DNA of 11,733 bases from a virus (IMGVR_UViG_2671180643_000016:1-11733); one strand, 5' to 3'. Positions 1 through 11,733 are shown, numbered from the stretch's first letter. Notes: generated by a model from the letters alone, not told the origin. A program made the numbers and translations.

Positions 1-1257
1 GTGCTTACCGATACAAAATTAAAAAACCTCAAGCCGCAGGACAAACTGTACAAGGTCTCCGATCGTGACGGGCTGTATGTAGCTGTGCTTACGTCAGGCA
101 CGGTCTCGTTTCGCTATGACTACCGTATCAACGGTCGCCGCGAAACACTGGTAATCGGGCAGTATGGGCGTGACGGTATCAGCCTGGCAGAAGCGCGAGA
201 AGAACTGATTGCTGCAAAGAAGCTGCTTAAAGCAGGCCAGTCACCGGCTGCGGCTAAACGTGACGGTATCAAAAAGATTCGTGGTGCCGAGACGTTTGCG
301 GTACATACCGACAGTTATATGAAACACGTCATCCTGGCTGACAGTACCCGCGCAATGAAACAGGCGGTGATCGACCGTGACATACTTCCGGTTCTTGGCA
401 ATAAAATGATGGCTGAAATTACCACATCGATGGTTCGTGATTTGTGTGACCGGATTGTCGAACGCGGTGGCCGGGCAACAGCAGTGCAGGCCAGGGAGAT
501 CATCAGTAGCGTATACCGTCACGCCAATGACCGTGGTCATGGTTTGTTTAATCCTGCGGCTGACATTAAACCTTCGTCTATCGCCATATTTAAACCACGA
601 GAGCGAACACTGACACCAGAAGAAACTGGCCTGTTCTTCCGCACGCTGGATGCCATTGGTGCTATGGGCACTATGAAAATGGCTTTAAAACTGGTGCTTA
701 TCACTATGGTTCGTAAGGGCGAATTCACCAATGCAACGTGGGATGAAATAGATTTTAAAAAATGGACATGGACAATTCCTCCAGACCGCATGAAGGGAAG
801 CCGGGCGCACGTTATTTACCTGCCTAAACAGGCACAGGATATATTGGTCGGGTTGCAGATGTGCGCTGGTGGAAGTGAATATCTGGTTCCTGGTCGTTAC
901 AATTTCTGGAAGCCATTATCTAATGCCGCGCTGAACTCTCTGATCGACAGAACGGTGAAAATAATAAATGAAGATGGTGAGCATATTCAGGACTTCACTG
1001 TACATGATATGCGCCGTACAGCCAGTACGTTGTTGCATGAGGCTGGTTATCCTTCAGACTGGATTGAAAAGGCTCTGGCACATGAGCAGAAAGGTGTGCG
1101 CGCCGTATATAACAAAGCGGAATACGCCAGACAGCGCGCCTACATGTTGCAGCAGTGGGCCGATATGATTGATTCCTGGATTAACGGGGAGCATACGGAT
1201 CTGATTCCGTTCTCCCCGTCGAAGTTTGAGAAGTGGATGGAAGACAGTAATAAATAA
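1..1257 (+). CDS. int: Tyrosine recombinase / phage integrase (P4-type); may be 5'-truncated by the window edge (ORF opens with GTG at position 1)
   Basis: 418-aa ORF with N-terminal arm-binding-like region (LTDTKLKNLKP...), catalytic-domain motifs TMVRKGE, HDMRRTASTLL (H-x-x-R) and a C-terminal Tyr region (VRAVYNKAEY). Stop TAA at 1255-1257. Confidence 0.9.
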   Translation: MLTDTKLKNLKPQDKLYKVSDRDGLYVAVLTSGTVSFRYDYRINGRRETLVIGQYGRDGISLAEAREELIAAKKLLKAGQSPAAAKRDGIKKIRGAETFAVHTDSYMKHVILADSTRAMKQAVIDRDILPVLGNKMMAEITTSMVRDLCDRIVERGGRATAVQAREIISSVYRHANDRGHGLFNPAADIKPSSIAIFKPRERTLTPEETGLFFRTLDAIGAMGTMKMALKLVLITMVRKGEFTNATWDEIDFKKWTWTIPPDRMKGSRAHVIYLPKQAQDILVGLQMCAGGSEYLVPGRYNFWKPLSNAALNSLIDRTVKIINEDGEHIQDFTVHDMRRTASTLLHEAGYPSDWIEKALAHEQKGVRAVYNKAEYARQRAYMLQQWADMIDSWINGEHTDLIPFSPSKFEKWMEDSNK

Positions 1258-1259
1258 TT

Positions 1260-1919
1260 CTATCCTTCTTGGATTTTGATAAGCGTCAGATTTCCGCAGA
1301 ACACTGCCACTGTGTCGATGTACATCTGGTTTGCATATACCAGTGGGTGATGTGCTGGCGTATGACCGAAGATGAACAGATCGGCACCGGTTATCTCCGA
1401 GACAATACCGTCCTGCGCGTCGCTAATCCGCTCACGATTCCATATCACCATTTCTTCTGGTACTGGCTTATTGAATGCGTATTCGTTGTGCGGGTAGTCT
1501 GCGTGGCAGATGACGACCTTCTTATTGCCGGTAACCAGTTCGATAATCATCGGGAGGTTGGTAATCTTTGGCAGAAGGTATTTGAGTTGCACATCCTGCT
1601 CAGAATCAAGTTGGTGCCACCATCCACCGCCGTTTGACATCCAATGTCCGAAACTTCCGCCGTTGACCAGTGCATCCAGCATCATCTGCTCATGGTTGCC
1701 ACGAACAGCTCGGAACCACGGCATAGCAATCAAATCCAGGCATTCGACGTTTTCAGCGCCGCGGTCAACAAGGTCACCAACGGAAATAAGCAAATCGCGC
1801 GCCGGGTCGAATGAAACTTTGTCGAGTTCGTTCATCAGCAGCGTGTAGCACCCATGCAGATCGCCGACGACGAAGATATTGCACCAGTCAGCGCCATTGA
1901 TGCGTTGATATAGGTTCAT
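1260..1919 (-). CDS. Ser/Thr protein phosphatase, lambda PPase-like metallophosphoesterase
   Basis: Metallophosphoesterase motifs GDLHG, GDLVDRG, GNHE and a C-terminal GHTP; the translation aligns along its length with my recollection of lambda phosphatase. Start ATG 1919 overlaps the upstream stop (ATGA); SD-like GGGAG upstream. The ORF-track start at 2039 is an upstream extension. Confidence 0.85.
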
Positions 1920-2566
1920 GCAGCACGCTCCCGCCCCTGGTTGTCTGTTGGTGACAGCGGAGCATTGCTGAATGCATTTGTTAATCTGGCAATATCCAAC
2001 GCGTATCCAGGGTGTAGTTGCACTGCCGGGTCTTCGCACTGATTACCCCAAACATCGAAACCATGAGACGACTGGCGAGCGAACAGTTCAATGCGAGAAA
2101 CATCGCCTAACAATTGCACAAGTTTTTCACGAACGATATCTGGTTTTCTTGAATGCTCAAGCCGCGGTGCGGTAAATGACTGAACGATCCCTGCATTAAT
2201 GCGCGTAGGTAGTTTTCCCTTTACCGCAAACAGGCAATCTTCACTATTGGCGCGAGTCATGTGCCCCATACCCATAACCAGTTTATCTGGTTGTCGACTA
2301 CCACATTTTATCCACGTGAAGCCCTTCATGGTCATCAGACGGAATCCCCAGGCTTCAACAACTTTTAGCGCTTCGAGTGGTTGTGTTGGCACCCACCACA
2401 TGGCCAACAGACAGTTTTCATCGGCCAAATCCCACACAGGAAGGCGGCAGATATCCAGCACACTCATAACCGGATATTTAAAACCGGCACCGCGATTACC
2501 ATCTGCGGCTTTGTCACGATGTGTCCAAGGCGGATCTGCATAGATTAGTGTGTATTTCTTAGTCAT
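1916..2566 (-). CDS. DNA N6-adenine methyltransferase, MT-A70-like (orphan, phage Dam-type)
   Basis: 216-aa ORF with the catalytic DPPW motif near the N-terminus ([10 protein letters not shown]), typical of MT-A70/beta-class amino-methyltransferases. SD-like GGGGTGG upstream of ATG 2566. No adjacent restriction endonuclease candidate. Confidence 0.75.
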
Positions 2567-2825
2567 AAACCACCCCGCAACATCCTATACCGCTATAGTC
2601 TCCACGGCGAAGGCCGTTACCTTTTGTGATACATTGGTCCCTGCGAACCGCGATCCTTGCACGCTCAACATCACCAGAAGCAACATCCATACACTGAAGC
2701 CAAAGGTGAGCGGCAATGCGGAACTGCCCCTTTTTCTCTCTTTCAATCGCGCGTTTTTCGATCTCTATCGCCGCAGGAGTAACGGCGACAATCTTTGACG
2801 GACTGCGCATTGAAACCTTATTCAT
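2559..2825 (-). CDS. Hypothetical protein (88 aa from ATG 2825; the ORF extends to 2858 with a GTG start)
   Basis: Open frame between xis and the methyltransferase in the same orientation, with its stop overlapping the methyltransferase start by 8 nt. No recognisable motifs and a weak RBS. Confidence 0.35.
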   Translation of the reverse strand: MNKVSMRSPSKIVAVTPAAIEIEKRAIEREKKGQFRIAAHLWLQCMDVASGDVERARIAVRRDQCITKGNGLRRGDYSGIGCCGVVYD

Positions 2826-2967
2826 GTGATATTTTTCAAGTCGGCTTAACTTTCTCACTTAATCCAACCCTCTCTGAAAATTAATGCCAGCAGATAAAGC
2901 CATGCTGAAACAGAGGCCAGGAATAAGTACCATCCTGACCATTTGATCCAGTGCCTTAGCAGCGCAC

Positions 2968-3216
2968 TCATGCAGCGTTGCTCACGGGACGATATACACG
3001 TTGCTGAACAGGAGGTTTTTTACCCTGGAACTCTGCCGGGCTTGCTGCCTGACGTTCATCAAGCCAACGCTCAACTTCGTCACGGTTCCATGCGCAGCGT
3101 TTGTCAGTGATATACCAGCGTTTAGGAAATTCCCCTGCGCGCTCCATACGGTCGATAGTGCTCCATGACAGTGGCACCACCGCCAGGAGTTCCTTCTTAC
3201 CTAATGCACCTTTCAT
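2968..3216 (-). CDS. xis: AlpA-family excisionase / DNA-binding regulator
   Basis: 82-aa ORF with an AlpA/Xis-type HTH signature (LSWSTIDRMERAGEFPKRWYITDKRCAWNRDEVERWL). SD GAGAGG upstream of ATG 3216. Position matches lambdoid xis (between recombination genes and the integration end). Confidence 0.75.
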   Translation of the reverse strand: MKGALGKKELLAVVPLSWSTIDRMERAGEFPKRWYITDKRCAWNRDEVERWLDERQAASPAEFQGKKPPVQQRVYRPVSNAA

Positions 3217-3265
3217 AAATACCTCTCTTGGTTGCAGTGCGGCGCGCGTGGCGCCGCGGTGGTGG

Positions 3266-4207
3266 TTACATAGATGTTTCGTTTAATTCTTCCCGACGAA
3301 CGCTGTAAACGTCGGTGGCTTTTGCCAGCAGTTCGTCATCATCTGAAAGTTTTTGTGCAATGTATTTGTAAGCCTTATCCAGTTCGGAGACAGTGCTGTA
3401 ATTCATCGCTGCGCTGGTAAAGGCCATCAGCATTTCTTCTGGATCACGGCTATCCGCTTTACGCGTTTGCTCATCAGGCTTTTTCACTGTTTTAGCGTTG
3501 ATCAGACTATTCATTCCCGCAGCCGTAGTTGTTTGCGGAGTAATGTCTCGCTCAACGCGCGGTGCCGTTTCCTGTAATTCGTCAGGTGTATAGACGCCCA
3601 TGATTACGTCAGGACAGTGCAAGCGAGACCAGCGTTTTGTCGCAAGGTATGCGAGTTGTTGTTTCGGATCGCTGGCCCAAAGTGTGGAGTTTCTTACCTG
3701 TGCCTGAGACAGCATTAACTCGAGCACTCGAGGTTGATCCTCTCCCTTCATGGTTGCCCATACGCGAACACCGCAGCCTTCTTCGTCTTTTATAGTCCAG
3801 CCTGGTGCGATATACGGATTGCCGTTTTTGGATGTTTTCTCAACAAACTTACCGATCACGCGTTCCCACGGCCCGAACCACTCGTAGTTGATGCGATCTT
3901 TTGTTGGCGACATTGTTGAGATAACTGCGTTTACTAATTGGGCTTCATAACCTAGCGTGCCGTTCACAACATGGGTTTTCTGAGCCACGGCAAACGGGTT
4001 CATTCCCCACTGCGCAGCCTGCATTGCCACGGCCATGCAATCAGCTGGTTTCCCGGCGAGGTGCGCCGGTACCGTTACGCGGCTTTGCGCCATTACCTCG
4101 GCGAATTTCATCAGTTGGTTCAAGCCGTCTGGGCTGAAAATAGTTGCAGCAGTGCCAGCGATTGCTGTGTCTACTGGTGCGTTGATGTTTGCGATGTTGT
4201 TGCTCAT
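3266..4207 (-). CDS. bet: Single-strand annealing protein, Red-beta/Bet-like (RecT/Red-beta superfamily)
   Basis: 313-aa ORF. Several segments resemble lambda Bet as I recall it (QWGMNPF vs QYGLNPW; LWASDPKQQL vs PWQSHPKRML; shared ERDITP). Start ATG overlaps the exonuclease stop (ATGA at 4204-4207); SD AGGA upstream. Confidence 0.75.
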   Translation of the reverse strand: MSNNIANINAPVDTAIAGTAATIFSPDGLNQLMKFAEVMAQSRVTVPAHLAGKPADCMAVAMQAAQWGMNPFAVAQKTHVVNGTLGYEAQLVNAVISTMSPTKDRINYEWFGPWERVIGKFVEKTSKNGNPYIAPGWTIKDEEGCGVRVWATMKGEDQPRVLELMLSQAQVRNSTLWASDPKQQLAYLATKRWSRLHCPDVIMGVYTPDELQETAPRVERDITPQTTTAAGMNSLINAKTVKKPDEQTRKADSRDPEEMLMAFTSAAMNYSTVSELDKAYKYIAQKLSDDDELLAKATDVYSVRREELNETSM

Positions 4208-5025
4208 ATGTACATATCCTGTTTACGTGCCCAGTCAGGGCGTTTAATAATTTCCACGCCACCCCATTCATCATTGATGCGGCATTCGTGATAGGTATTC
4301 AGATCCCGGCGGAACAGAGCGTGCCCGGTATCGACATCCTTCGCATCCAGCTCGAACACGCGTACCGGATACCGACCACAATCAATGCTTTCGCTCACGG
4401 CAAGAAAGAAAAAACCATGCGGCTGACCAGTAACCCTCATTGCGCCTTCACGGTACATTGCGTCCTGCACGTGGTAGCGGAATTCCTCGATGTGGCGAGC
4501 AAAACGATCCATATCTGCAACCTTTTTCACGTCGACGATTACGTTGTGCTCGTTCAGCCATTTGTCTGGACGAATTCGGCACAACTCACCCGTCTCTTCA
4601 TCGTTCCAGTACATTGATGCTTCGCAGTAACCAGGTGCTTCCAGCATCCAGCGTGCCGCCGGGTGAGCCATTGCGCTATCACGCATCAGCTCCAGTTTTC
4701 GCCACTGCTCTGCATCAAGTACCGAAATCCCCATATCCGCTACATCACGAATAAATGCCTCTTCGTCAGCTTTACCTTGTTTTGTCCGACGATCGAATTT
4801 CGGTGAAACGATGAAGCGTTTGTCAAACTCTCTAGGTTCCAGAAGCAGACAGTGCAGAGCAGTACCCATATCCAGTGCAGACTTATTCTCTTCGTCTTCC
4901 GGAGCGGCCTTCACCCATTTCAGAAGGGCAGGGTTCTTAGCCACCATATCTAGCTGCGACTTACTCACGCCGTCACCGGCGTGGTAGTCCTCGTTGCTGA
5001 TATCGAAATAAATTCCCGGATTCAT
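4204..5025 (-). CDS. RecE-like exonuclease (PD-(D/E)XK fold), partner of the annealase
   Basis: 273-aa ORF with a GIYFDISNEDYH N-terminal signature, a D-x-K core (VIVDVKKV) followed by FRYHVQDAMYREG and a C-terminal YHEC, consistent with the RecE C-terminal nuclease-domain family. Start overlaps the upstream stop (ATGA at 5022-5025). Confidence 0.75.
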   Translation of the reverse strand: MNPGIYFDISNEDYHAGDGVSKSQLDMVAKNPALLKWVKAAPEDEENKSALDMGTALHCLLLEPREFDKRFIVSPKFDRRTKQGKADEEAFIRDVADMGISVLDAEQWRKLELMRDSAMAHPAARWMLEAPGYCEASMYWNDEETGELCRIRPDKWLNEHNVIVDVKKVADMDRFARHIEEFRYHVQDAMYREGAMRVTGQPHGFFFLAVSESIDCGRYPVRVFELDAKDVDTGHALFRRDLNTYHECRINDEWGGVEIIKRPDWARKQDMYI

Positions 5026-5321
5026 GCCGCGTCCCTCTGCCCATCAATCTGATCAGCCAGATCCCAGCGGGCGATAATTGCCATTGCCTCGCGCCGGTAG
5101 GCATCCATTAGTTCTTCGAACTCAGGGCTGTCTTTAGCGGCCTCCAGTACTTCCTGGCGAACGCCTTTAACTGTTACAACGTCGAAAGTTGATGCCAGTT
5201 GATGAAGCCGGATACTCTCAATCAGTTCAACTTGTCGGTCATATAGCTGTTCTGACAGGCGGTAGTCCTTGTCGAATGCCAGCATGATTTTTTGAAGATT
5301 TTTCTGCTGATTAACGTTCAT
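5022..5321 (-). CDS. Hypothetical acidic helical protein (99 aa from ATG 5321)
   Basis: Strong SD GGGAGGG immediately upstream of ATG 5321; the ORF-track start at 5336 is an upstream extension. Sits directly upstream of the exonuclease in the leftward operon. Function unknown; a Gam/Abc-like nuclease inhibitor is only a positional guess. Confidence 0.5.
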   Translation of the reverse strand: MNVNQQKNLQKIMLAFDKDYRLSEQLYDRQVELIESIRLHQLASTFDVVTVKGVRQEVLEAAKDSPEFEELMDAYRREAMAIIARWDLADQIDGQRDAA

Positions 5322-5323
5322 TA

Positions 5324-5476
5324 TCAGCCCTCCCATATCTCGTTATCGTTGGCCACATCGCGAGCTTCTTTGCTGACGAAAGCCCACTTAATGCCTTCCT
5401 GTAAGGTGCGGAACTTCCAGCTCATGAATCCGCATGCAGTAACGCAGTACCAACCGTTGATGATTTTCCACTGCAT
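5324..5476 (-). CDS. Small protein (50 aa), first gene of the leftward operon; absent from the ORF track because it is under 60 aa
   Basis: Hand translation from ATG 5476: MQWKIINGWYCVTACGFMSWKFRTLQEGIKWAFVSKEARDVANDNEIWEG, stop TGA 5324-5326. SD GAGGT 8 nt upstream. Its stop and the next start are arranged as TGATAATGA. Hydrophobic N-terminal half. Confidence 0.4.
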   Translation of the reverse strand: MQWKIINGWYCVTACGFMSWKFRTLQEGIKWAFVSKEARDVANDNEIWEG

Positions 5477-5494
5477 AATTTGTTACCTCGGTCT

Positions 5495-5573
5495 GTTACC
5501 GTTGAGGTAATGATTATGCGTATTTGGTTTGATGTCAATAGATATGAGTTAAAAAAATTACCCATAAGGTAAT
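5495..5573 (-). promoter_or_regulatory. pL-like leftward promoter with two flanking 17-bp operator palindromes
   Basis: Minus-strand -35 TTGACA (5533-5538) with a -10-like CATAAT/TAATCA 14-16 bp downstream. Flanked by GTTACCGTTGAGGTAAT (5495-5511) and ATTACCCATAAGGTAAT (5557-5573); operator centres 62 bp apart. Confidence 0.55.
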
Positions 5574-5580
5574 CTTGATG

Positions 5581-5608
5581 GCAATAAAAAAGCCGCCATG
5601 AGGCGGCT
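5581..5608 (-). terminator. Rho-independent terminator downstream of the repressor gene
   Basis: On the minus strand: stem AGCCGCC, loop UCAU, stem GGCGGCU, followed by UUUUUUAUU; lies 22 bp downstream of the repressor stop (5630-5632). Confidence 0.6.
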
Positions 5609-5629
5609 TACTTACTGAAAAATATGATT

Positions 5630-6214
5630 TTATTGTTTGTTTTTTTCGTTCTGGTTGATGACAAATTCAATGTAACTTTCGATCTTTGCTTTCTCGGGTT
5701 CGGGTAACAATGCGTAGCGCGAGCGGTCATAGTTGATGGTCGCAGGGTCGTGCGGGTGAATCAGTAATTCATAGCCGTGACGCCCGAATGCGGATGCAAC
5801 ATTCTCCAGGGTGGAAATGGAAACGCTGACCTCATTGTTTAACAGGCGGCTGATTGTTACCTGGGCGACGCCGGATGCGCGGTGAAGTTTTCCCTGCGTT
5901 GAAAGGTCGCGGCTTTCGCTCATCCAGCGTTCCAGGTTGTGAGCCGCCAGCTGACCAATGTCGCTTGGGCCGACAGGCTGAAAACCTTCCTGAGAAAGCG
6001 AGCGATCGATATCAAGCCAGTTACGGGGTTTATTGGCGGCAGCTTCAATTTTTCGCGCAACCTGGTCGCCGATAACCTTCTTGCCAAGAGCCCAGCGGTT
6101 TACCAGATTTGCCTGAGTTCCAAGTTTTTCTGCCATCCGCGTCTGAACACCATTGAATTCACGGTCGATCAAGTCGTTGAGATTTTGCCTGCGGACGTCC
6201 TGGATACTTTTCAT
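5630..6214 (-). CDS. Prophage repressor, XRE-type HTH, with a second HTH-like segment and no S24 peptidase domain
   Basis: 194-aa ORF. N-terminal HTH (QTRMAEKLGTQANLVNRWALGKK) resembles 434/P22-type repressors; C-terminal half has another HTH-like stretch (VAQVTISRLLNNEVSVSISTLENVASAFG) and no Ser-Lys/GDSM autocleavage signature. Divergent from the Cro-like gene across an operator region. Confidence 0.7.
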   Translation of the reverse strand: MKSIQDVRRQNLNDLIDREFNGVQTRMAEKLGTQANLVNRWALGKKVIGDQVARKIEAAANKPRNWLDIDRSLSQEGFQPVGPSDIGQLAAHNLERWMSESRDLSTQGKLHRASGVAQVTISRLLNNEVSVSISTLENVASAFGRHGYELLIHPHDPATINYDRSRYALLPEPEKAKIESYIEFVINQNEKNKQ

Positions 6215-6268
6215 TTTCTGGAAAATCGCCTCATATATGAATCAGTAGATGATTCAATTTAAAGCAAT

Positions 6269-6333
6269 ATTACCCAACAGGTAAATGCACCCCATAGGTA
6301 ACTATCCTTGATTTTTGTTACCTTATGGGTGAA
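6269..6333. promoter_or_regulatory. OR-like tripartite operator region with divergent promoters
   Basis: Three 17-bp sites of the ATTACC-N5-GGTAAT family: ATTACCCAACAGGTAAA (6269-6285), weaker TGCACCCCATAGGTAAC (6286-6302), GTTACCTTATGGGTGAA (6317-6333). Candidate rightward promoter -35 TTGTTA (6315-6320), 17-bp spacer, -10 TATTAT (6338-6343). Confidence 0.55.
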
Positions 6334-6368
6334 TATTTATTATCTGAAATAAATATCAGGCAATAGCT

Positions 6369-6599
6369 ATGAGCGATAACGGACATTTCGATTTCAAAAA
6401 GCACTGGCTTGCACTTACTCCGGATGAGCGTGAAGCCTTCGCACAGGAAGCCGGAACGACGAGTCACTATATCCAGACTCACTTAACAGGTAAGCGCAAA
6501 ATGCCAGGTAAGGTATTGATGAATGGGCTTTTTAAAGCCTGTAAAACAAGACAATGGCTGCGCTCAAAAGCAGAACTGGCATACTTCTTCTACTCATGA
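6369..6599 (+). CDS. Cro-like small DNA-binding regulator (putative)
   Basis: 76-aa ORF divergent from the repressor, directly downstream of the operators, with a possible HTH (REAFAQEAGTTSHYIQTHL). AGG 8 nt upstream of the ATG; followed by a terminator. Confidence 0.55.
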   Translation: MSDNGHFDFKKHWLALTPDEREAFAQEAGTTSHYIQTHLTGKRKMPGKVLMNGLFKACKTRQWLRSKAELAYFFYS

Positions 6600-6620
6600 T
6601 ATCCAGCCACAACCCTCTGT

Positions 6621-6644
6621 AGACCGCCATCCGGCGGTCTTTTC
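6621..6644 (+). terminator. Rho-independent terminator after the Cro-like gene (tR1-like position)
   Basis: Stem AGACCGCC (6621-6628), loop ATCC, stem GGCGGTCT (6633-6640), then TTTT. Confidence 0.6.
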
Positions 6645-6749
6645 ATATCTATTCGCACCTCAAAGGTAATAAAAAACCAAATGTGGTTGATCTTTTTTTT
6701 GTGTCAGCACAAAATGACCGTAATCCCAATACTAATAACAGGGCTTACC

Positions 6750-6950
6750 ATGGAAATCATTACACGTATTGATGCCGCAAAGCGCGGACTTAAACGCTAC
6801 TACACCGGAAAACAATGTAAGCACGGACATGACAGTGAACGCTGGGTTTACAACGGGCACTGTGTTGAGTGCACCATGGAATCAAACCGTCGCATCAGGG
6901 CAGAGATTAAGCAGATCATGATTAATTCCTCCCCACAACACTCAAGCTGA
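6750..6950 (+). CDS. Hypothetical Cys/His-rich small protein (66 aa), possible zinc-binding, in the cII position
   Basis: ATG 6750 with AGGG 8 nt upstream; motif C-K-H-G-H ... H-C-V-E-C suggests a zinc ribbon. The ORF-track start at 6681 lacks an RBS. Confidence 0.45.
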   Translation: MEIITRIDAAKRGLKRYYTGKQCKHGHDSERWVYNGHCVECTMESNRRIRAEIKQIMINSSPQHSS

Positions 6951-6965
6951 TAGCGGAGATTAATC

Positions 6966-7781
6966 ATGAGCAGACATGCAACAGATTGGGCTTGGGAGAC
7001 AGATCCAGGCAGCTCATCATTAAAGCTCATACTGCTCTCGATGGCTGACAGAGCCGATGAATATAACCTCTGCTACCCCAGCATAGAACGCCTCGTTAAA
7101 GACACTTGCCTGAATAAAAAAACCGTGCAGGCCGGGCTTATATCGCTCATGAAAATGGGGCTTATTTCAGATACCGGAGAGAGAAAGGGAGCGACAAAAA
7201 GAGTGCGGGTTTTCTCTCTTAATATAACCAAAAACGGGAACATTAAAGGCAACCTAGATGGGTGTAATGAACCCGAAAACGGTAATGTTCCCGAAAACGG
7301 GAATATACCCAAAAACGGGATGTTGAATGATCCCAAAAACGGGATGTTGAATGATCCCAAAAACGGGATCCAGAACCAGTCATATAACCAGTCATTTAAC
7401 CAAGAGAGGGAGAGCAGGACAAAAACCGGGGATTCTGTGCCTCATGACCCCGGCGCAAACAACGCCGTGATGAATAACTTTGTTCCTCCTGGTGGGCCAG
7501 GGCAATTAGGCAAATTTGTCATGCATGAACAATGGCAGCCATCAGATGACTTTCTTCGGAAAAGCTCATTGCAGGGGATCTACCTGGACAGTCTGCCAAC
7601 GGCACAGGAACTTGCAGAGTTCAGAATTTACTGGATGGCTGAGGGTAAGGCATACCATCAGGCACAGTGGGAGCAGAAGCTGGCAAGGCGGCTGCAGATT
7701 AGCAGACAGAAGCAATCAACATTACCTGATAACAACGTTCCGCACTGGAACAGCCCTGAAGCATGGGAGGATTTCTTGTGA
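6966..7781 (+). CDS. Replication initiation protein (lambda O functional analogue; N-terminal winged-helix-like, C-terminal DnaT-like)
   Basis: 271-aa ORF. N-terminal HTH-like region (LKLILLSMADRADEYNLCYPSIERLVKDTCLNKKTVQAGLISLMKMGLI), repetitive linker encoded by the iterons, C-terminal FRIYWMAEGKAYHQAQWEQKLARRL. Immediately upstream of the P-like gene with overlapping stop/start. Confidence 0.75.
   Translation: MSRHATDWAWETDPGSSSLKLILLSMADRADEYNLCYPSIERLVKDTCLNKKTVQAGLISLMKMGLISDTGERKGATKRVRVFSLNITKNGNIKGNLDGCNEPENGNVPENGNIPKNGMLNDPKNGMLNDPKNGIQNQSYNQSFNQERESRTKTGDSVPHDPGANNAVMNNFVPPGGPGQLGKFVMHEQWQPSDDFLRKSSLQGIYLDSLPTAQELAEFRIYWMAEGKAYHQAQWEQKLARRLQISRQKQSTLPDNNVPHWNSPEAWEDFL
7227..7369. 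repeat. Iteron array inside the replication initiator gene (putative ori)
   Basis: Direct repeats with core CC(C)(A/G)AAAACGG(G/T)A at 7227-7241, 7271-7286, 7289-7304, 7307-7321, 7331-7345, 7355-7369, spaced 18, 18, 24 and 24 bp. Includes an exact 24-bp tandem duplication GATGTTGAATGATCCCAAAAACGG (7319-7342 and 7343-7366). Confidence 0.6.
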
Positions 7782-8563
7782 ACAACGTTTTTACCGCGAT
7801 ACAAAACCGTGACGGAGAAGCCCTTTCTCGCATGTCAGGTTATGATCATCAGTACGTCAACAATGACAATGTGGTGAACATGTCAGCAGAGAGGCTTGTT
7901 GATGCCCTTTTCAAACAGCTGAAACAACTGTTTCCGGCGGCAGTGGTAACCAACCTGAAGACGCCAGAGCAGGAAGTCGCTGCAAAACAGCAGTGGATTG
8001 CTGCGTTTGCCGAAGGGGGGATCCGAACCCGTGAACAGGTTTCTGCTGGTATGCGCCACGCCCGCGCCAGTGAATCTCCGTTCTGGCCGTCGCCAGGGCA
8101 ATTTATCAAGTGGTGCAAAGACAGCAAGATGGTTCTTGGCGTCACCATTGACGATGTGATGGCGGAGTTTCACCGGTACAGCAAGGAAAAAAGTTTATAT
8201 CCTGGTGGTCCCGAAAGATTCCCGTGGCGGCATCCGGTTATGTACTGGGTCGTATGTGATACCCGCCGTGCAATGTATCAGCGCCAGCTTAGCGAGATTG
8301 AGGTTGAGAAACACGCGCGCAGGTTGCTCGATGATTGGGCGAAAAAGGTGGCTTCCGGACAGCAGATACCCGATCCGGTGATCAGCATACAGGCAAAGCC
8401 AGAACCCATGAGTACACCTCCGGACACAGGGAGAGACGTTTACCATCCACCAGGGCGAAGTTTCGGGTGCATGCCTAACGCCGCCACCCTGGGGGGAATA
8501 ACACCTGCGCAGTGGCTGATGGAGGAATACAGGCGAGGAAAGGCAGCAGGATTTATCAAGTAA
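7778..8563 (+). CDS. P: Replication protein P-like (DnaB helicase loader)
   Basis: Clear resemblance to lambda P as I recall it (QQWIAAFAEGGIRTREQVSAGMRHARASESPFWPSPGQFIKWC vs lambda RQWVLAFRENGITTMEQVNAGMRVARRQNRPFLPSPGQFVAWC). Preferred start GTG 7778 with SD GGGAGG 8 nt upstream, overlapping the upstream stop (GTGA); alternative ATG 7763 lacks an SD. Confidence 0.85.
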   Translation: MNNVFTAIQNRDGEALSRMSGYDHQYVNNDNVVNMSAERLVDALFKQLKQLFPAAVVTNLKTPEQEVAAKQQWIAAFAEGGIRTREQVSAGMRHARASESPFWPSPGQFIKWCKDSKMVLGVTIDDVMAEFHRYSKEKSLYPGGPERFPWRHPVMYWVVCDTRRAMYQRQLSEIEVEKHARRLLDDWAKKVASGQQIPDPVISIQAKPEPMSTPPDTGRDVYHPPGRSFGCMPNAATLGGITPAQWLMEEYRRGKAAGFIK

Positions 8564-8599
8564 TACCAGCGCGATAGCGCATTTTTTTACGTCTATATG

Positions 8600-8678
8600 A
8601 TTACCTTATAGGTAATAAAATATTCTAATTTCTATTGATTTTATGTCTTATGTGGTTTTTAATTACCTAAGGGGTAAA
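8600..8678 (+). promoter_or_regulatory. Operator-flanked promoter upstream of the DUF1064-like gene (same architecture as pL)
   Basis: ATTACCTTATAGGTAAT (8600-8616; perfect palindrome) and ATTACCTAAGGGGTAAA (8662-8678) flank -35 TTGATT (8635-8640), 17-bp spacer, -10 TTTAAT (8658-8663). Operator centres are 62 bp apart, as at pL. Confidence 0.55.
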
Positions 8679-8680
8679 TC

Positions 8681-9025
8681 ATGAGAAAACAGATACAGGC
8701 TCTTGGTCGACTCAAAACAGGCCAGATGAACAAAACAGAATCTGCGTATTGCCAGCACCTTGAGCTGCGTAAACGTGCAGGAGAAATCGTCTGGTATCGA
8801 TTTGAGGGTATCAAGTTGCGGTTAGCTGACAACACGTTCTATACGCCCGATTTTGCTGTGATGCTCGCCACCGGCGAGATGGAACTGCACGAAGTGAAAG
8901 GTTTCTGGACCGACGACGCCAGGGTGAAAACCAAAGTCGCCGCAGATCAGTATCCGTTCCGAATCATCGGGGTAACGGTTAAGCCAAAGAAAGCAGGTGG
9001 TGGCTGGAACATCGAAGAGTTCTGA
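8681..9025 (+). CDS. DUF1064-like phage protein, probable PD-(D/E)XK nuclease fold
   Basis: 114-aa ORF with D...E-x-K-like arrangement (TPDFAV ... ELHEVKG). SD AAGGGG upstream of ATG 8681. Family assignment is from memory. Confidence 0.6.
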   Translation: MRKQIQALGRLKTGQMNKTESAYCQHLELRKRAGEIVWYRFEGIKLRLADNTFYTPDFAVMLATGEMELHEVKGFWTDDARVKTKVAADQYPFRIIGVTVKPKKAGGGWNIEEF

Positions 9026-9086
9026 ATCGACGATCTTTTTAGTTATCAATGTAATCAATAAGTTATGTGGATAAGCGAGGGTAAAG

Positions 9087-9719
9087 ATGGAAAGTAATAT
9101 CAAAGGGTTAGTTGCCGCCGGGCATGAGATGGCTTCGGAACTGAAAGCAGAATGTGGTGCCGTTGATATGCGCAGTGTGGCAAAGCTGATCAGCGATTTG
9201 GCAACGCAACTGGAAGTGCAACTGGTGCGTGCTAATGCGCTGGCCGAAGACCACCAGAGAGCGATTGAGTCAATTAAGCAGGCTGATTCGGCTGTTAAGT
9301 TGGCACACGAGAAGTTTTCGGCGCTGGCGGCGGAGAATGCGGGGCTGAAACACGCAATGGCCGTAACTCTTGAGCATGTGTCGGTCACGGATGCAGGGCA
9401 GGCTGGTGTTGCTGCAATGATTATCAACGATGCCCTGCACCACAGCGAAACTCCAGCCACCGATGCTTTCCTGGCTGAAATTCGTGCGGAAGCACGCAAC
9501 GAGGGGATTAACTATACCGCAAGCCGTCTTGCTGCTGCTTTCAATCACGGATTTATCAATAAGTCTTTACGTGAAGTTTTCGACGTTACACGCATGATTC
9601 TGTCAGCAAAAGAAGAGTTAGCTAATGAATCGCATCCGATTGATGGCCTGTCCGGTGAATATGCAGAGAAATCCCTTGAAGAATGGGCGGAACGGCTTCG
9701 CAAAGGAGGCAGCCAGTGA
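9087..9719 (+). CDS. Hypothetical protein (210 aa), Ala/Leu/Glu-rich, predicted helical
   Basis: SD GAGGG 7 nt upstream of ATG 9087; stop TGA overlaps the GTG start of the downstream methyltransferase. No recognisable catalytic motifs. Confidence 0.55.
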   Translation: MESNIKGLVAAGHEMASELKAECGAVDMRSVAKLISDLATQLEVQLVRANALAEDHQRAIESIKQADSAVKLAHEKFSALAAENAGLKHAMAVTLEHVSVTDAGQAGVAAMIINDALHHSETPATDAFLAEIRAEARNEGINYTASRLAAAFNHGFINKSLREVFDVTRMILSAKEELANESHPIDGLSGEYAEKSLEEWAERLRKGGSQ

Positions 9720-10189
9720 CTGGACATGCAGCAATCCTCGACATGTGCTGTGGCAGTCGCATGTTCTGGTTCGATAAGAATGACGACCGGGCGATATTTA
9801 GCGATATCAGAAAGGAAGAGCACACATTGTGTGATGGACGACGCCTGATTATCAGTCCTGATCTGATAGCTGATTTTCGTGCACTACCATTTGCAGACGC
9901 ATCTTTTTCGATGGTTATATTCGACCCTCCGCATCTTGAGCGTGTTGGTGATAACGCCTGGATGGGAAAGAAATATGGACGGCTGAATAAAGATACCTGG
10001 CGTGATGATTTGCGGCAGGGATTTAAAGAAGCCTTTCGTGTGTTGCGTCCATCCGGAGTTCTGATTTTTAAATGGAATGAAACGCAAATACCTGTTCGCC
10101 AGATATTGGTACTGACCGACAGAAAACCTGTTATCGGTCAACGAACAGGAAAAAACGATAAAACCCACTGGATTATTTTTATGAAATAG
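9716..10189 (+). CDS. Small DNA amino-methyltransferase (phage Dam-like, putative N6-adenine)
   Basis: AdoMet-binding-like motif ILDMCCGSRMF followed by the catalytic-type motif FDPPH. Start GTG 9716 with SD AGGAGG 7 nt upstream, overlapping the upstream stop (GTGA). The ORF-track start at 9683 has no RBS. Confidence 0.6.
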   Translation: MTGHAAILDMCCGSRMFWFDKNDDRAIFSDIRKEEHTLCDGRRLIISPDLIADFRALPFADASFSMVIFDPPHLERVGDNAWMGKKYGRLNKDTWRDDLRQGFKEAFRVLRPSGVLIFKWNETQIPVRQILVLTDRKPVIGQRTGKNDKTHWIIFMK

Positions 10190-10335
10190 GCATCCAGTGA
10201 GTAGGTTCGTAAGGTTACAGATACGTATATCTGAATAATTAAATTCAGTTCTGTAAATAAAATTTAATCCTTAACCGGAGGGATTCCTGCACCCTCAGAA
10301 CATCAGGATACCGCCCGAAAGGGCGGTAATGAAAA

Positions 10336-10803
10336 ATGGCTGAATTAACCAAATGGCTACAAAACACGATTACCGGAATTGAAACGGTAGTAGACGATAA
10401 ATCGTTTGTATGTGATGAAATAGTATTCAAAATCGATGTGGTTAAAAACGTACTTACCGCATTTAAAGTCGCGCTGGTATCGCTGGAAGCCGAACCGGTG
10501 ACATGGCGATATCGCTACGTGAGAAAAGGCGTTACGAACTTTCAGGAGAAGCCGTGGGTTGGTGACTGGAAATATGTACCGACAAAAGAGAATTGCAACG
10601 ACAGGCCGAACTATGAAATTCAGGCGTTATTCACGGCCCAGCCTGTGCCACTGACACCCGAAGGATTGATTAAAGCGGTGCGCTTCTATGAACAGGTTAA
10701 GAGTGAAAATCCGCCAGTCGAAACCGGAGCATGGAAAGACGCTGTTGACTGGGTGCTCAAAGAGGCTTGTCAGGCTGTAAACATTGGCATCAAAGGAGAG
10801 TGA
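10336..10803 (+). CDS. Hypothetical phage protein (155 aa) sharing an N-terminal domain with the 10999 gene
   Basis: N-terminus LTKWLQNTITGIE...NVLTAFKVALVSLEA is paralogous to LTKEWLQNTITSIE...NMLTALKIALASLAA in the downstream 244-aa protein. Confidence 0.55.
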   Translation: MAELTKWLQNTITGIETVVDDKSFVCDEIVFKIDVVKNVLTAFKVALVSLEAEPVTWRYRYVRKGVTNFQEKPWVGDWKYVPTKENCNDRPNYEIQALFTAQPVPLTPEGLIKAVRFYEQVKSENPPVETGAWKDAVDWVLKEACQAVNIGIKGE

Positions 10804-10804
10804 G

Positions 10805-10996
10805 ATGAACGGACAAATATCAATTGTTCGACCGGGAGCATGTGACGATCGCGAGATACGAATGATTATTCGTCTGGCGATGGGGAAAACAATAACAGCT
10901 CTCATTACTCCTGAAAATCTCGCATTAGCATTAACAGGAAAGTCAGACTTGCCAGTAGAGCTAAAGCTGCGAAATGTTGAGATTAAGGTGAAATAG
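10805..10996 (+). CDS. Hypothetical small protein (63 aa)
   Basis: ATG 10805 with SD AGGAG 8 nt upstream; positioned 1 nt after the upstream stop and 2 nt before the next start. Confidence 0.4.
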   Translation: MNGQISIVRPGACDDREIRMIIRLAMGKTITALITPENLALALTGKSDLPVELKLRNVEIKVK

Positions 10997-10998
10997 TT

Positions 10999-11733
10999 AT
11001 GAATACTCTTACCAAAGAATGGTTACAGAACACGATTACCAGCATTGAGTCAGCACGGGATGAAATACCGTTCGGACTCGATGAAGATCAAAACAACATG
11101 CTTACCGCATTAAAAATTGCACTGGCATCACTGGCAGCAGTATCGGATGAACGAGCAGCCTATGAATTATTTATGGAGAAGCGTTTCGGGGAATCTGTAG
11201 ATCGCCGTAGGGCAAAAAATGGCGATAGAGAATACATGGCATGGGATATGGCGCTTGGCTGGATTATCTGGTGTCACCGCGCCGCCATGCTTCAGGGTAG
11301 CCAACCTGTAAGCCAAACTTACAACTTGCCAGAATTAATCGAAGGCATGGAAGTTTCCATTGATATAAGCACTTGTGATGCTGATTTAGGTAATCGCTAT
11401 TTCGGCACCGTCACCGAAGCGTTAGAACTTGATACAGCCAAGAATGGTTACATCCTCTTGGTTCAGGACGCAGAGCCAAACTTCGATGTAAATGGCAACT
11501 CTCCGGGAACTCCGGATAGTTGGATAAGCTGTAGTGATCGAATGCCTGAAAAGGGCCAGAACGTGCTTATTTCGGTGAATTTCGATAGCTCTCTGGTTGA
11601 ACCGCTAATATGCTCCGCACGCTATACCGGAAGCACCTTTCGGCGCGGAGATGCAACGATTAAGCCGGGTAATGGTATTGAGCAAGCAACTCACTGGATG
11701 CCGCTACCGGAACCGCCGCAGGAGGTGAAGTGA
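10999..11733 (+). CDS. Phage protein with paralogous N-terminal domain and DUF551-like C-terminal domain
   Basis: C-terminal DSWISCSDRMPEKGQNVLISV ... ATHWMPLPEPP resembles the DUF551 signature as I recall it; N-terminal about 45 aa paralogous to the 10336 gene. Stop TGA 11731-11733. Confidence 0.6.
   Translation: MNTLTKEWLQNTITSIESARDEIPFGLDEDQNNMLTALKIALASLAAVSDERAAYELFMEKRFGESVDRRRAKNGDREYMAWDMALGWIIWCHRAAMLQGSQPVSQTYNLPELIEGMEVSIDISTCDADLGNRYFGTVTEALELDTAKNGYILLVQDAEPNFDVNGNSPGTPDSWISCSDRMPEKGQNVLISVNFDSSLVEPLICSARYTGSTFRRGDATIKPGNGIEQATHWMPLPEPPQEVK

Follow-up and report, generated by a model that had tools for sequence, protein, structure and literature searches.

The gene at positions 5630 to 6214 of the DNA analysed here, a stretch of 11,733 nucleotides that we refer to as the window, appears to encode the immunity repressor (Rep) of a guaA-integrated phiV10/epsilon15-like (Uetakevirus) prophage, which would be induced by the antirepressor Ant rather than through self-cleavage of the repressor. 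We assign a probability of about 0.85 to this reading. It is supported by the homology and the domain content of the protein, by the operators in the window, by the absence of a Peptidase_S24 domain, and by the presence of an ant gene with a LexA box in near-identical prophages.

Counted from its most upstream ATG, the ORF runs on the minus strand to a stop codon and specifies 194 amino acids:

5630..6214, minus strand: rep, a putative 194-aa lysogeny repressor of the SPC32H Rep / phiV10 gp40 family

Rep is identical to phiV10p40 (gp40) at 193 of 194 positions (99.5%), the sole difference being T173P, and it is also identical at 193 of 194 positions to the protein of the prophage region at guaA of E. 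coli 2013C-4538 (L003; all L003 coordinates refer to that sequence). A phmmer search of the PDB aligned residues 1-190 with residues 2-197 of 5d50_A, 'Repressor' (E 3.9e-42), and the C-terminal half matched 5d4z_A with an E-value of 4e-20. Both entries are structures of the Rep protein of phage SPC32H, 5D4Z being a tetrameric construct of residues 92-198 and 5D50 a complex with the antirepressor Ant. The alignment with SPC32H Rep showed 41-43% identity, and its only gaps, two of 3 residues, were both located in the linker. Identity was highest in the N-terminal domain (53%) and the C-terminal tail (49%), and lower in the middle domain (32%) and the linker (25%). The identity to the epsilon15 repressor was about 42%. 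In PHROGs, Rep matched phrog_8 'transcriptional regulator' (E 7e-27), while NCBIfam contained no family for Rep, for the neighbouring cro-like protein or for Ant. A single-sequence AlphaFold2 model of Rep (pLDDT 47.7, pTM 0.27) was too poor for a fold search; because of the full-length match to a solved structure, we nevertheless regard the fold as settled. Judged by its sequence, the ORF is a real gene and its product is a member of the SPC32H/epsilon15/phiV10 repressor family. The preliminary description of this DNA had placed a 194-aa repressor gene at this position, which is borne out by the intact ORF and by the full-length match to SPC32H Rep. The repressor of phage ZX5, ORF21, has been stated to be identical to phiV10 ORF40 (PMC9782041). 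Overexpression of this phiV10-type repressor in ZX5 blocked lytic transcription, with the endolysin and holin transcripts being reduced by more than 99.9% (PMC9782041).

The genomic context of rep points to the same phage group. Over the 1.3 kb around rep, the identity to phage phiV10, a podovirus of the genus Uetakevirus that resembles epsilon15, is 98.3%, and the comparison of the window with phiV10 showed 97-98% identity. Positions 1-9719 share 99.8% identity with the prophage that E. coli 2013C-4538 carries at the 3' end of guaA. The window itself corresponds, with no mismatch, to the last 11,733 bases of the draft contig CYBI01000019.1 of assembly GCA_001283725.1 (L028 4372-16104, reverse strand), and it spans from the start codon of the integrase gene to the end of the contig. 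It was recognised through an exact protein look-up, whereas a scan of genome contigs for exact copies of a window-specific 48-mer gave no match. This contig, too, carries its prophage at the 3' end of guaA and ends inside it, so that the remaining part must be located on a different contig; the ant gene is not visible because the assembly breaks within the prophage. The rep region was present in 561 of 5,426 complete E. coli genomes. The neighbourhood of rep has the appearance of a lambdoid-style early region, followed on the right by a separate module:

1-1257: integrase gene
after the integrase gene: leftward operon for a phosphatase, an MT-A70 methylase, a PerC-like protein, an AlpA-like protein, RecT and an exonuclease
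between the leftward operon and rep: two small ORFs
5590..5609, minus strand: intrinsic terminator just past the rep stop codon, with an 8-bp GC-rich stem and a T-run
6369..6599, plus strand: gene for a cro-like small regulator of 76 aa, divergent from rep (phrog_35 'transcriptional repressor', E 5.6e-13)
6621-6640: intrinsic terminator directly after the cro-like gene
6966-7781: DnaT-like replication gene, followed by a P-like replication gene
9683-10189: DNA methyltransferase gene, in module 9476-11733
10336-10803 and 10784-10996: two ORFs of unknown function, in module 9476-11733
10999-11733: gene for a DUF551-domain protein, in module 9476-11733

The cro-like protein is 100% identical to phiV10p41 and 75% identical to its counterparts in SPC32H and epsilon15, and the phiV10 record has a terminator annotated at the same place after the repressor gene. 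Downstream of the terminator at 6621-6640, and before the next gene and the replication genes, we found the degenerate operator-like site GCACCTCAAAGGTAA (6655-6669). Since the cro-like gene is followed by a terminator and then by this site, rightward early transcription may need read-through or a second start.

Two further observations concern the right-hand part of the window. Firstly, six iteron-like direct repeats with the core CCC(A/G)AAAACGGGA and a spacing of 18-45 bp are located at positions 7220-7372, inside the DnaT-like initiator gene (6966-7781), where they encode a repetitive PENGN/PKNGM peptide stretch. These repeats probably represent the replication origin; in phage lambda, ori is located within gene O. 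Secondly, positions 9476-11733 form a mosaic module that is absent from phiV10 and from the L003 prophage, and that is 99% identical to many IMG/VR contigs. The viral contigs that a scan found to match the window share only this right-hand module, and not the rep region.

We then consider the factor that would inactivate Rep. An exact CTGT-N8-ACAG sequence is absent from the window; compared with the 20-mer LexA consensus, even the best position has 7 mismatches, the number most often obtained from shuffled sequence. Ten right-hand and PerC-like ORFs were scanned against PHROGs without a hit to an antirepressor family, and domain and PHROG searches with the small ORFs on either side of rep were equally negative in this respect. 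The earlier remarks that the window lacks a LexA box and an antirepressor, and that an inducing factor would lie elsewhere, thus proved accurate. Indeed, the search of the rest of the prophage for a small ORF behind a LexA box, which had been suggested at the same time and which we ran in the 99.8%-identical L003 sibling, returned the following gene:

L003 34828-35085, minus strand: gene for an 85-aa 'hypothetical protein', an Ant homologue (E 2.6e-46 to 5d50_E 'Anti-repressor protein')

This protein is 86% identical to SPC32H Ant. Its gene lies ~27 kb from rep and adjoins the tailspike gene, and in the SPC32H annotation ant is likewise an 86-aa gene that is divergent from the tailspike gene. 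The sequence AACTGTATATTTATACAGTA, located ~20 bp upstream of the L003 ant start codon, has 2 mismatches to the 20-mer LexA consensus. In SPC32H, epsilon15, phiV10 and the L003 prophage, exactly one position each comes within 2-3 mismatches of the LexA consensus, and it invariably precedes ant by a short distance; all other positions in these four genomes have at least 6 mismatches. The arrangement of rep and ant, with ant beside the tailspike gene and behind a LexA box, is therefore common to phiV10, SPC32H and epsilon15. The ant region was found in 531 of the 5,426 complete E. coli genomes, a number near the 561 with rep, and ant was located at prophage-scale distance from rep in all three genomes that were checked from among the best window matches. 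In PHROGs, the Ant homologue matched phrog_450, a family without assigned function, and had a weak match to one labelled 'anti-repressor' (E 3e-7); neither Pfam nor NCBIfam gave a significant family for it. Between members from E. coli and from Salmonella, the identity of Ant amounts to 83-86%.

Kim and Ryu are said to have reported in 2013 that SPC32H Rep resists SOS cleavage and that LexA binds at the ant promoter. Secondary literature attributes induction in SPC32H to Ant, which takes the Rep tetramer apart (PMC9638917, PMC7380047, PMC9986798). The homology of Rep to the repressor of the SPC32H Rep-Ant pair, together with the LexA-boxed ant of the sibling prophages, therefore argues in favour of antirepressor-mediated induction as it had been suggested for this prophage.

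In all four phages, the intergenic region between ant and the tailspike gene also contains a Rep-type operator ~40 bp from the LexA box:

L003 35162-35176; L002 20013-20027; L027 1897-1911; L001 (phiV10) 20877-20891: operator near the ant LexA box

The tailspike promoter may thus be a further target of Rep, or Rep may modulate ant; no consensus promoter was detected in this intergenic region by the promoter scan.

The most serious alternative is that Rep is inactivated mainly by another antirepressor, for example of the Bro-N/KilAC type (phiV10p23, ZX5 ORF4), and not by an SPC32H-type Ant. The ZX5 paper names its Bro-N protein 'the anti-repressor' without mention of an SPC32H-type Ant, and overexpression of this protein, ORF4, lowered the lysogen titre ~1000-fold and the repressor transcripts by 75% (PMC9782041). 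Furthermore, the Bro-N gene of phiV10 is located just downstream of the ant homologue. However, the effect in ZX5 came from strong overexpression, and a Bro-N gene is missing from the corresponding locus of the 99.8%-identical L003 prophage, where ant and its LexA box are retained. SPC32H and epsilon15 likewise have no Bro-N gene at the ant locus, and it is Ant that is 83-86% conserved across the genus and that was co-crystallised with Rep. We consider it improbable that a Bro-N protein is the main inactivator of Rep, although phages with a Bro-N gene may use its product as an antirepressor. The ZX5 Bro-N protein is only 39% identical to phiV10 p23. In phiV10, an annotated terminator separates the Bro-N gene from the Ant homologue (p23-p24, L001 19646-20800).

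The domains of Rep are arranged as follows:

codons 1-72, 5999..6214, minus strand: N-terminal Cro/YdaS-like helix-turn-helix (HTH), putative DNA-binding domain, boundaries approximate
codons 89-147, 5774..5950, minus strand: second HTH-like segment, putative middle dimerisation domain, boundaries approximate
codons 148-190, 5645..5773, minus strand: C-terminal tail, putative tetramerisation and Ant-binding domain, which carries T173P

Residues 21-67 gave only sub-threshold Pfam matches (YdaS_toxin, E 5e-4; HTH_3, E 0.015), whereas residues 106-147 matched HTH_3 with 25.8 bits and HTH_26 with 24.9 bits, both above the curated cut-offs, when the C-terminal half was scanned alone. The preliminary description had seen a clear XRE-type HTH at the N-terminus and a second HTH-like stretch in the C-terminal half. 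The latter was confirmed by these scores. As to the former, the N-terminal HTH is, by its sequence, homologous to the DNA-binding domain of SPC32H Rep, and the NLVNRW stretch in this part of the protein is invariant in the comparison with SPC32H Rep, but it is not 'clear' by profile score. The weighting of the two segments is in fact reversed, the clear XRE-type HTH being the second one. Codons 89-147 align with the 5d4z_A construct (Rep 92-198), and codons 148-190 align with the C-terminus of both 5d50_A and 5d4z_A. According to a published description of the SPC32H repressor, its N-terminal domain is the DNA-binding domain, its dimerisation domain is located between the DNA-binding and tetramerisation domains, and its C-terminal tail serves in tetramerisation and Ant binding (PMC9986798). 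At the sequence level, Rep shows this three-part layout, with HTH profile matches in both halves. The second HTH-like segment would accordingly be a dimerisation domain and not a second reader of DNA.

It should be noted that residues 98-192 of Rep (window 5639-5923) alone match the stand-alone PHROG phrog_13326, of unknown function, with an E-value of 1.8e-22, and that they show a weak similarity, well short of the cut-off, to the RstR repressor family of CTX phage (NF041951, E 0.0017). A possible origin of the dimerisation domain and the tail is thus a small, free-standing HTH repressor that gained an N-terminal DNA-binding domain.

SOS autocleavage is the default model for lambdoid repressors, and Rep could in principle be a classical SOS-cleavable repressor, or be cut by a dedicated ImmA/IrrE-type protease. 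Repressors of the LexA/lambda CI type combine an S24 Ser/Lys domain with an Ala-Gly or Cys-Gly site. In Rep, Peptidase_S24 gave no Pfam match even at E≤10, and the sequence contains neither an Ala-Gly nor a Cys-Gly dipeptide. An S24 domain cannot fit into the protein because only ~45 residues remain after the second HTH; the C-terminal half is accounted for by HTH_3 and this 45-residue tail, which is homologous to 5d4z_A. The absence of a Ser/Lys peptidase signature that had been noted from the sequence was thus upheld, and the profile search of the C-terminal half, in which S24 and HTH were the competing outcomes, decided for HTH. In the searches that were run, the ORFs flanking rep showed no metalloprotease domain. 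The solved SPC32H homologue is described as a protein without a protease fold, in which an HTH-like dimerisation domain is combined with a p53-like tetramerisation motif (PMC9986798). With no domain or cleavage site to support them, autocleavage by an S24 peptidase and cleavage by an ImmA-type protease were both rejected, and we regard either as highly unlikely.

The single substitution that distinguishes Rep from its closest relatives, T173P (codon 5696-5698), is located in the predicted tetramerisation and Ant-binding tail. Residue 173 is Pro in the window, Thr in phiV10 and the L003 prophage, and Glu in SPC32H and epsilon15; the ZX5 repressor also has Thr at this position, according to its paper (PMC9782041). 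An exact protein look-up in a large collection found the P173 version of Rep on only 5 contigs, and this allele is therefore rare. It might change the sensitivity to Ant or the stability of the tetramer and thereby shift the inducibility of this prophage, a suggestion that we make only tentatively.

Perfect TTACC-N5-GGTAA palindromes start at positions 5496, 5558, 6270, 8601 and 8663 of the window, and degenerate copies at 6287, 6318 and 6655. With up to 2 mismatches allowed, the window contains 12 matches against 3.4 expected, a number reached in 0 of 200 shuffled sequences. The full motif is a 17-bp palindrome, ATTACC-N5-GGTAAT. The sites and the associated promoters are the following:

5496..5572: left operator region, with perfect sites at 5496-5510 and 5558-5572, 62 bp apart
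5538 to 5510: leftward promoter TTGACA-17-AATCAT, from the promoter scan, bracketed by the left operator pair
6270..6343: right operator region, between rep and the cro-like gene, with sites at 6270-6284 (perfect), 6287-6301 (2 mismatches) and 6318-6332 (1 mismatch)
6315-6343: rightward promoter TTGTTA-17-TATTAT, from the promoter scan, before the cro-like gene, with site 6318-6332 in its spacer
8601..8677: third operator pair, 8601-8615 and 8663-8677, 62 bp apart, between the P-like and DUF1064 genes
L003 1493-1507: single operator-motif site upstream of int, 57 bp upstream of window position 1
L003 15380, 18545 and 39873: single operator-motif sites at the beginning of terS, ahead of the head-gene block and ahead of the lysis genes, respectively

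As in SPC32H, palindromic operators flank rep and overlap the early promoters. For the third pair, the scan found no rightward consensus promoter, but only a leftward 9-of-12 match. The 62-bp spacing of the left pair recurs in SPC32H, epsilon15 and phiV10, the three-site layout on the right with spacings of 17 bp and 30-31 bp is also seen in SPC32H and epsilon15, and pairs equivalent to 8601/8663 occur in phiV10, SPC32H and epsilon15. One SPC32H Rep tetramer has been described as carrying two DNA-binding units (PMC9638917), and operator pairs spaced by 62 bp would fit such a tetramer.

Similar sites are dispersed over the related genomes. With at most 1 mismatch, 12 operator sites were found in the L003 prophage (0.78 expected), 18 in SPC32H (0.65 expected) and 14 in phiV10 (0.65 expected). 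Of the 12 sites in L003, 10 are intergenic, whereas intergenic DNA makes up only 8.3% of the prophage (P about 9e-10). The positions of the operators are syntenic across the genomes: they are found upstream of int, in both the left and the right operator region, past the replication genes, close to terS, in front of the head genes, in the ant-tailspike intergenic region and in front of the lysis genes. Of these, the single sites of L003 (int, terS, head and lysis) have syntenic counterparts in phiV10 and SPC32H, which suggests that most of the prophage's transcription units are contacted by Rep. Such a dispersed set of operators is no novelty, since the RefSeq record of epsilon15 already annotates ATTACC-N5-GGTAAT 17-mers as 'protein_bind: repressor', including the equivalents of the left region and one site of the pair equivalent to 8601/8663.

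The view that rep encodes an antitoxin-like or generic HTH regulator instead of a prophage immunity repressor, to which one could be led by the annotation of a Rep homologue in the phage BP9 record as a plasmid maintenance antidote ('VapI antidote') and by a weak HigA match (E 0.0012), was rejected and is very improbable, as this match reached only 18.7 bits against a cut-off of 47.7 (TIGR02607), no toxin gene adjoins rep, its neighbours being the cro-like gene and small early genes, rep occupies the canonical position, divergent from the cro-like gene and between operators that overlap early promoters, and overexpression of the phiV10-type repressor imposes lysogeny (PMC9782041).

Altogether, we favour a mechanism in which tetrameric Rep would bind the 17-bp palindromes and shut the leftward and rightward early promoters as well as other promoters. 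The N-terminal HTH would read the DNA, the middle HTH-like domain would dimerise, and the C-terminal tail would join two dimers into a tetramer. During the SOS response, Rep would presumably not be cleaved because it has no peptidase domain. DNA damage would rather inactivate LexA and so derepress ant, which is located ~27 kb from rep, with the virion genes on one side and the tailspike gene on the other. Ant would then bind to the C-terminal and N-terminal domains of Rep, thereby splitting the tetramer and freeing the DNA. For the present Rep, the binding as a tetramer, the action of Ant and the lack of cleavage are expected by analogy, as the key steps of this mechanism rest on SPC32H Rep, which is only about 42% identical. 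None of the observations spoke against this mechanism.

The SPC32H Rep-Ant system (PDB 5D4Z, 5D50; Kim & Ryu 2013; Kim et al. 2016) is the closest characterised relative. It shares with the present prophage the genus, the gene order, the operator half-sites and their spacings, and a repressor that is homologous over its full length, has the same three-part layout and lacks S24; sibling prophages carry the 86%-identical Ant behind a LexA box at the same locus. On the other hand, its host is Salmonella and not E. coli, the Rep proteins are about 42% identical, and SPC32H has three left-operator sites where the window has two. phiV10 gp40 and ORF21 of vB_EcoP_ZX5 are essentially the same protein as Rep, with identical neighbours and integration at guaA; the differences are T173P and the mosaic module at 9476-11733. 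The epsilon15 gp38 repressor belongs to the same family, as is reflected by the HHpred match to 5d50_A cited in its RefSeq record. Epsilon15 has the same operator motif ATTACC-N5-GGTAAT, with one annotated site next to gp19, its Ant homologue, but it differs in its Salmonella host and in the identity of about 42% between the Rep proteins.

The preliminary description had taken the Gifsy-type prophages as precedent. By the homology of both Rep and Ant, the right precedent is SPC32H/epsilon15, although the general logic is the same. The systems of Gifsy, Fels-2 and 186 are those of sipho- and myoviruses, and according to Kim and Ryu (2013) SPC32H Ant is reportedly structurally distinct from their antirepressors. 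Gifsy-1/3, Fels-2 and coliphage 186 (Tum) also combine a non-cleavable repressor with a LexA-repressed small antirepressor gene (PMC7380047). The Rco-Rap pair of plasmid pLS20 resembles Rep-Ant in that an N-terminal HTH and a C-terminal p53-like tetramerisation motif are combined in a regulator that is relieved by a protein antagonist (PMC9986798). However, Rco is a regulator of plasmid conjugation without a middle dimerisation domain, and the likeness is structural only (PMC9986798).

The proteins have diverged unevenly between the E. coli and Salmonella members, with identities of 83-86% for Ant and 75% for the cro-like protein, but of only about 42% for Rep; the operator half-sites are the same. 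Given this contrast between a diverged Rep and a conserved Ant with conserved half-sites, cross-reactivity of Ant or shared immunity between the E. coli and Salmonella members is a possibility. One LexA-controlled Ant might then inactivate divergent Rep proteins and cross-induce co-resident epsilon15-like prophages, which we regard as speculative and rather unlikely.

A repressor/antirepressor system of this type is already known, and in this respect the finding is an ordinary one. Its importance beyond correct annotation is little, but it concerns a type of prophage that is present in ~10% of complete E. coli genomes (561 of 5,426). RefSeq labels the Rep gene merely as 'helix-turn-helix domain-containing protein', where the product would actually be a prophage immunity repressor with an induction route that is predictable from the solved SPC32H Rep-Ant system. 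The small 'hypothetical protein' encoded beside the tailspike gene is the Ant homologue, and it is this protein, rather than the Bro-N protein examined in ZX5, that is likely to be the SOS-linked inducer of these E. coli prophages.
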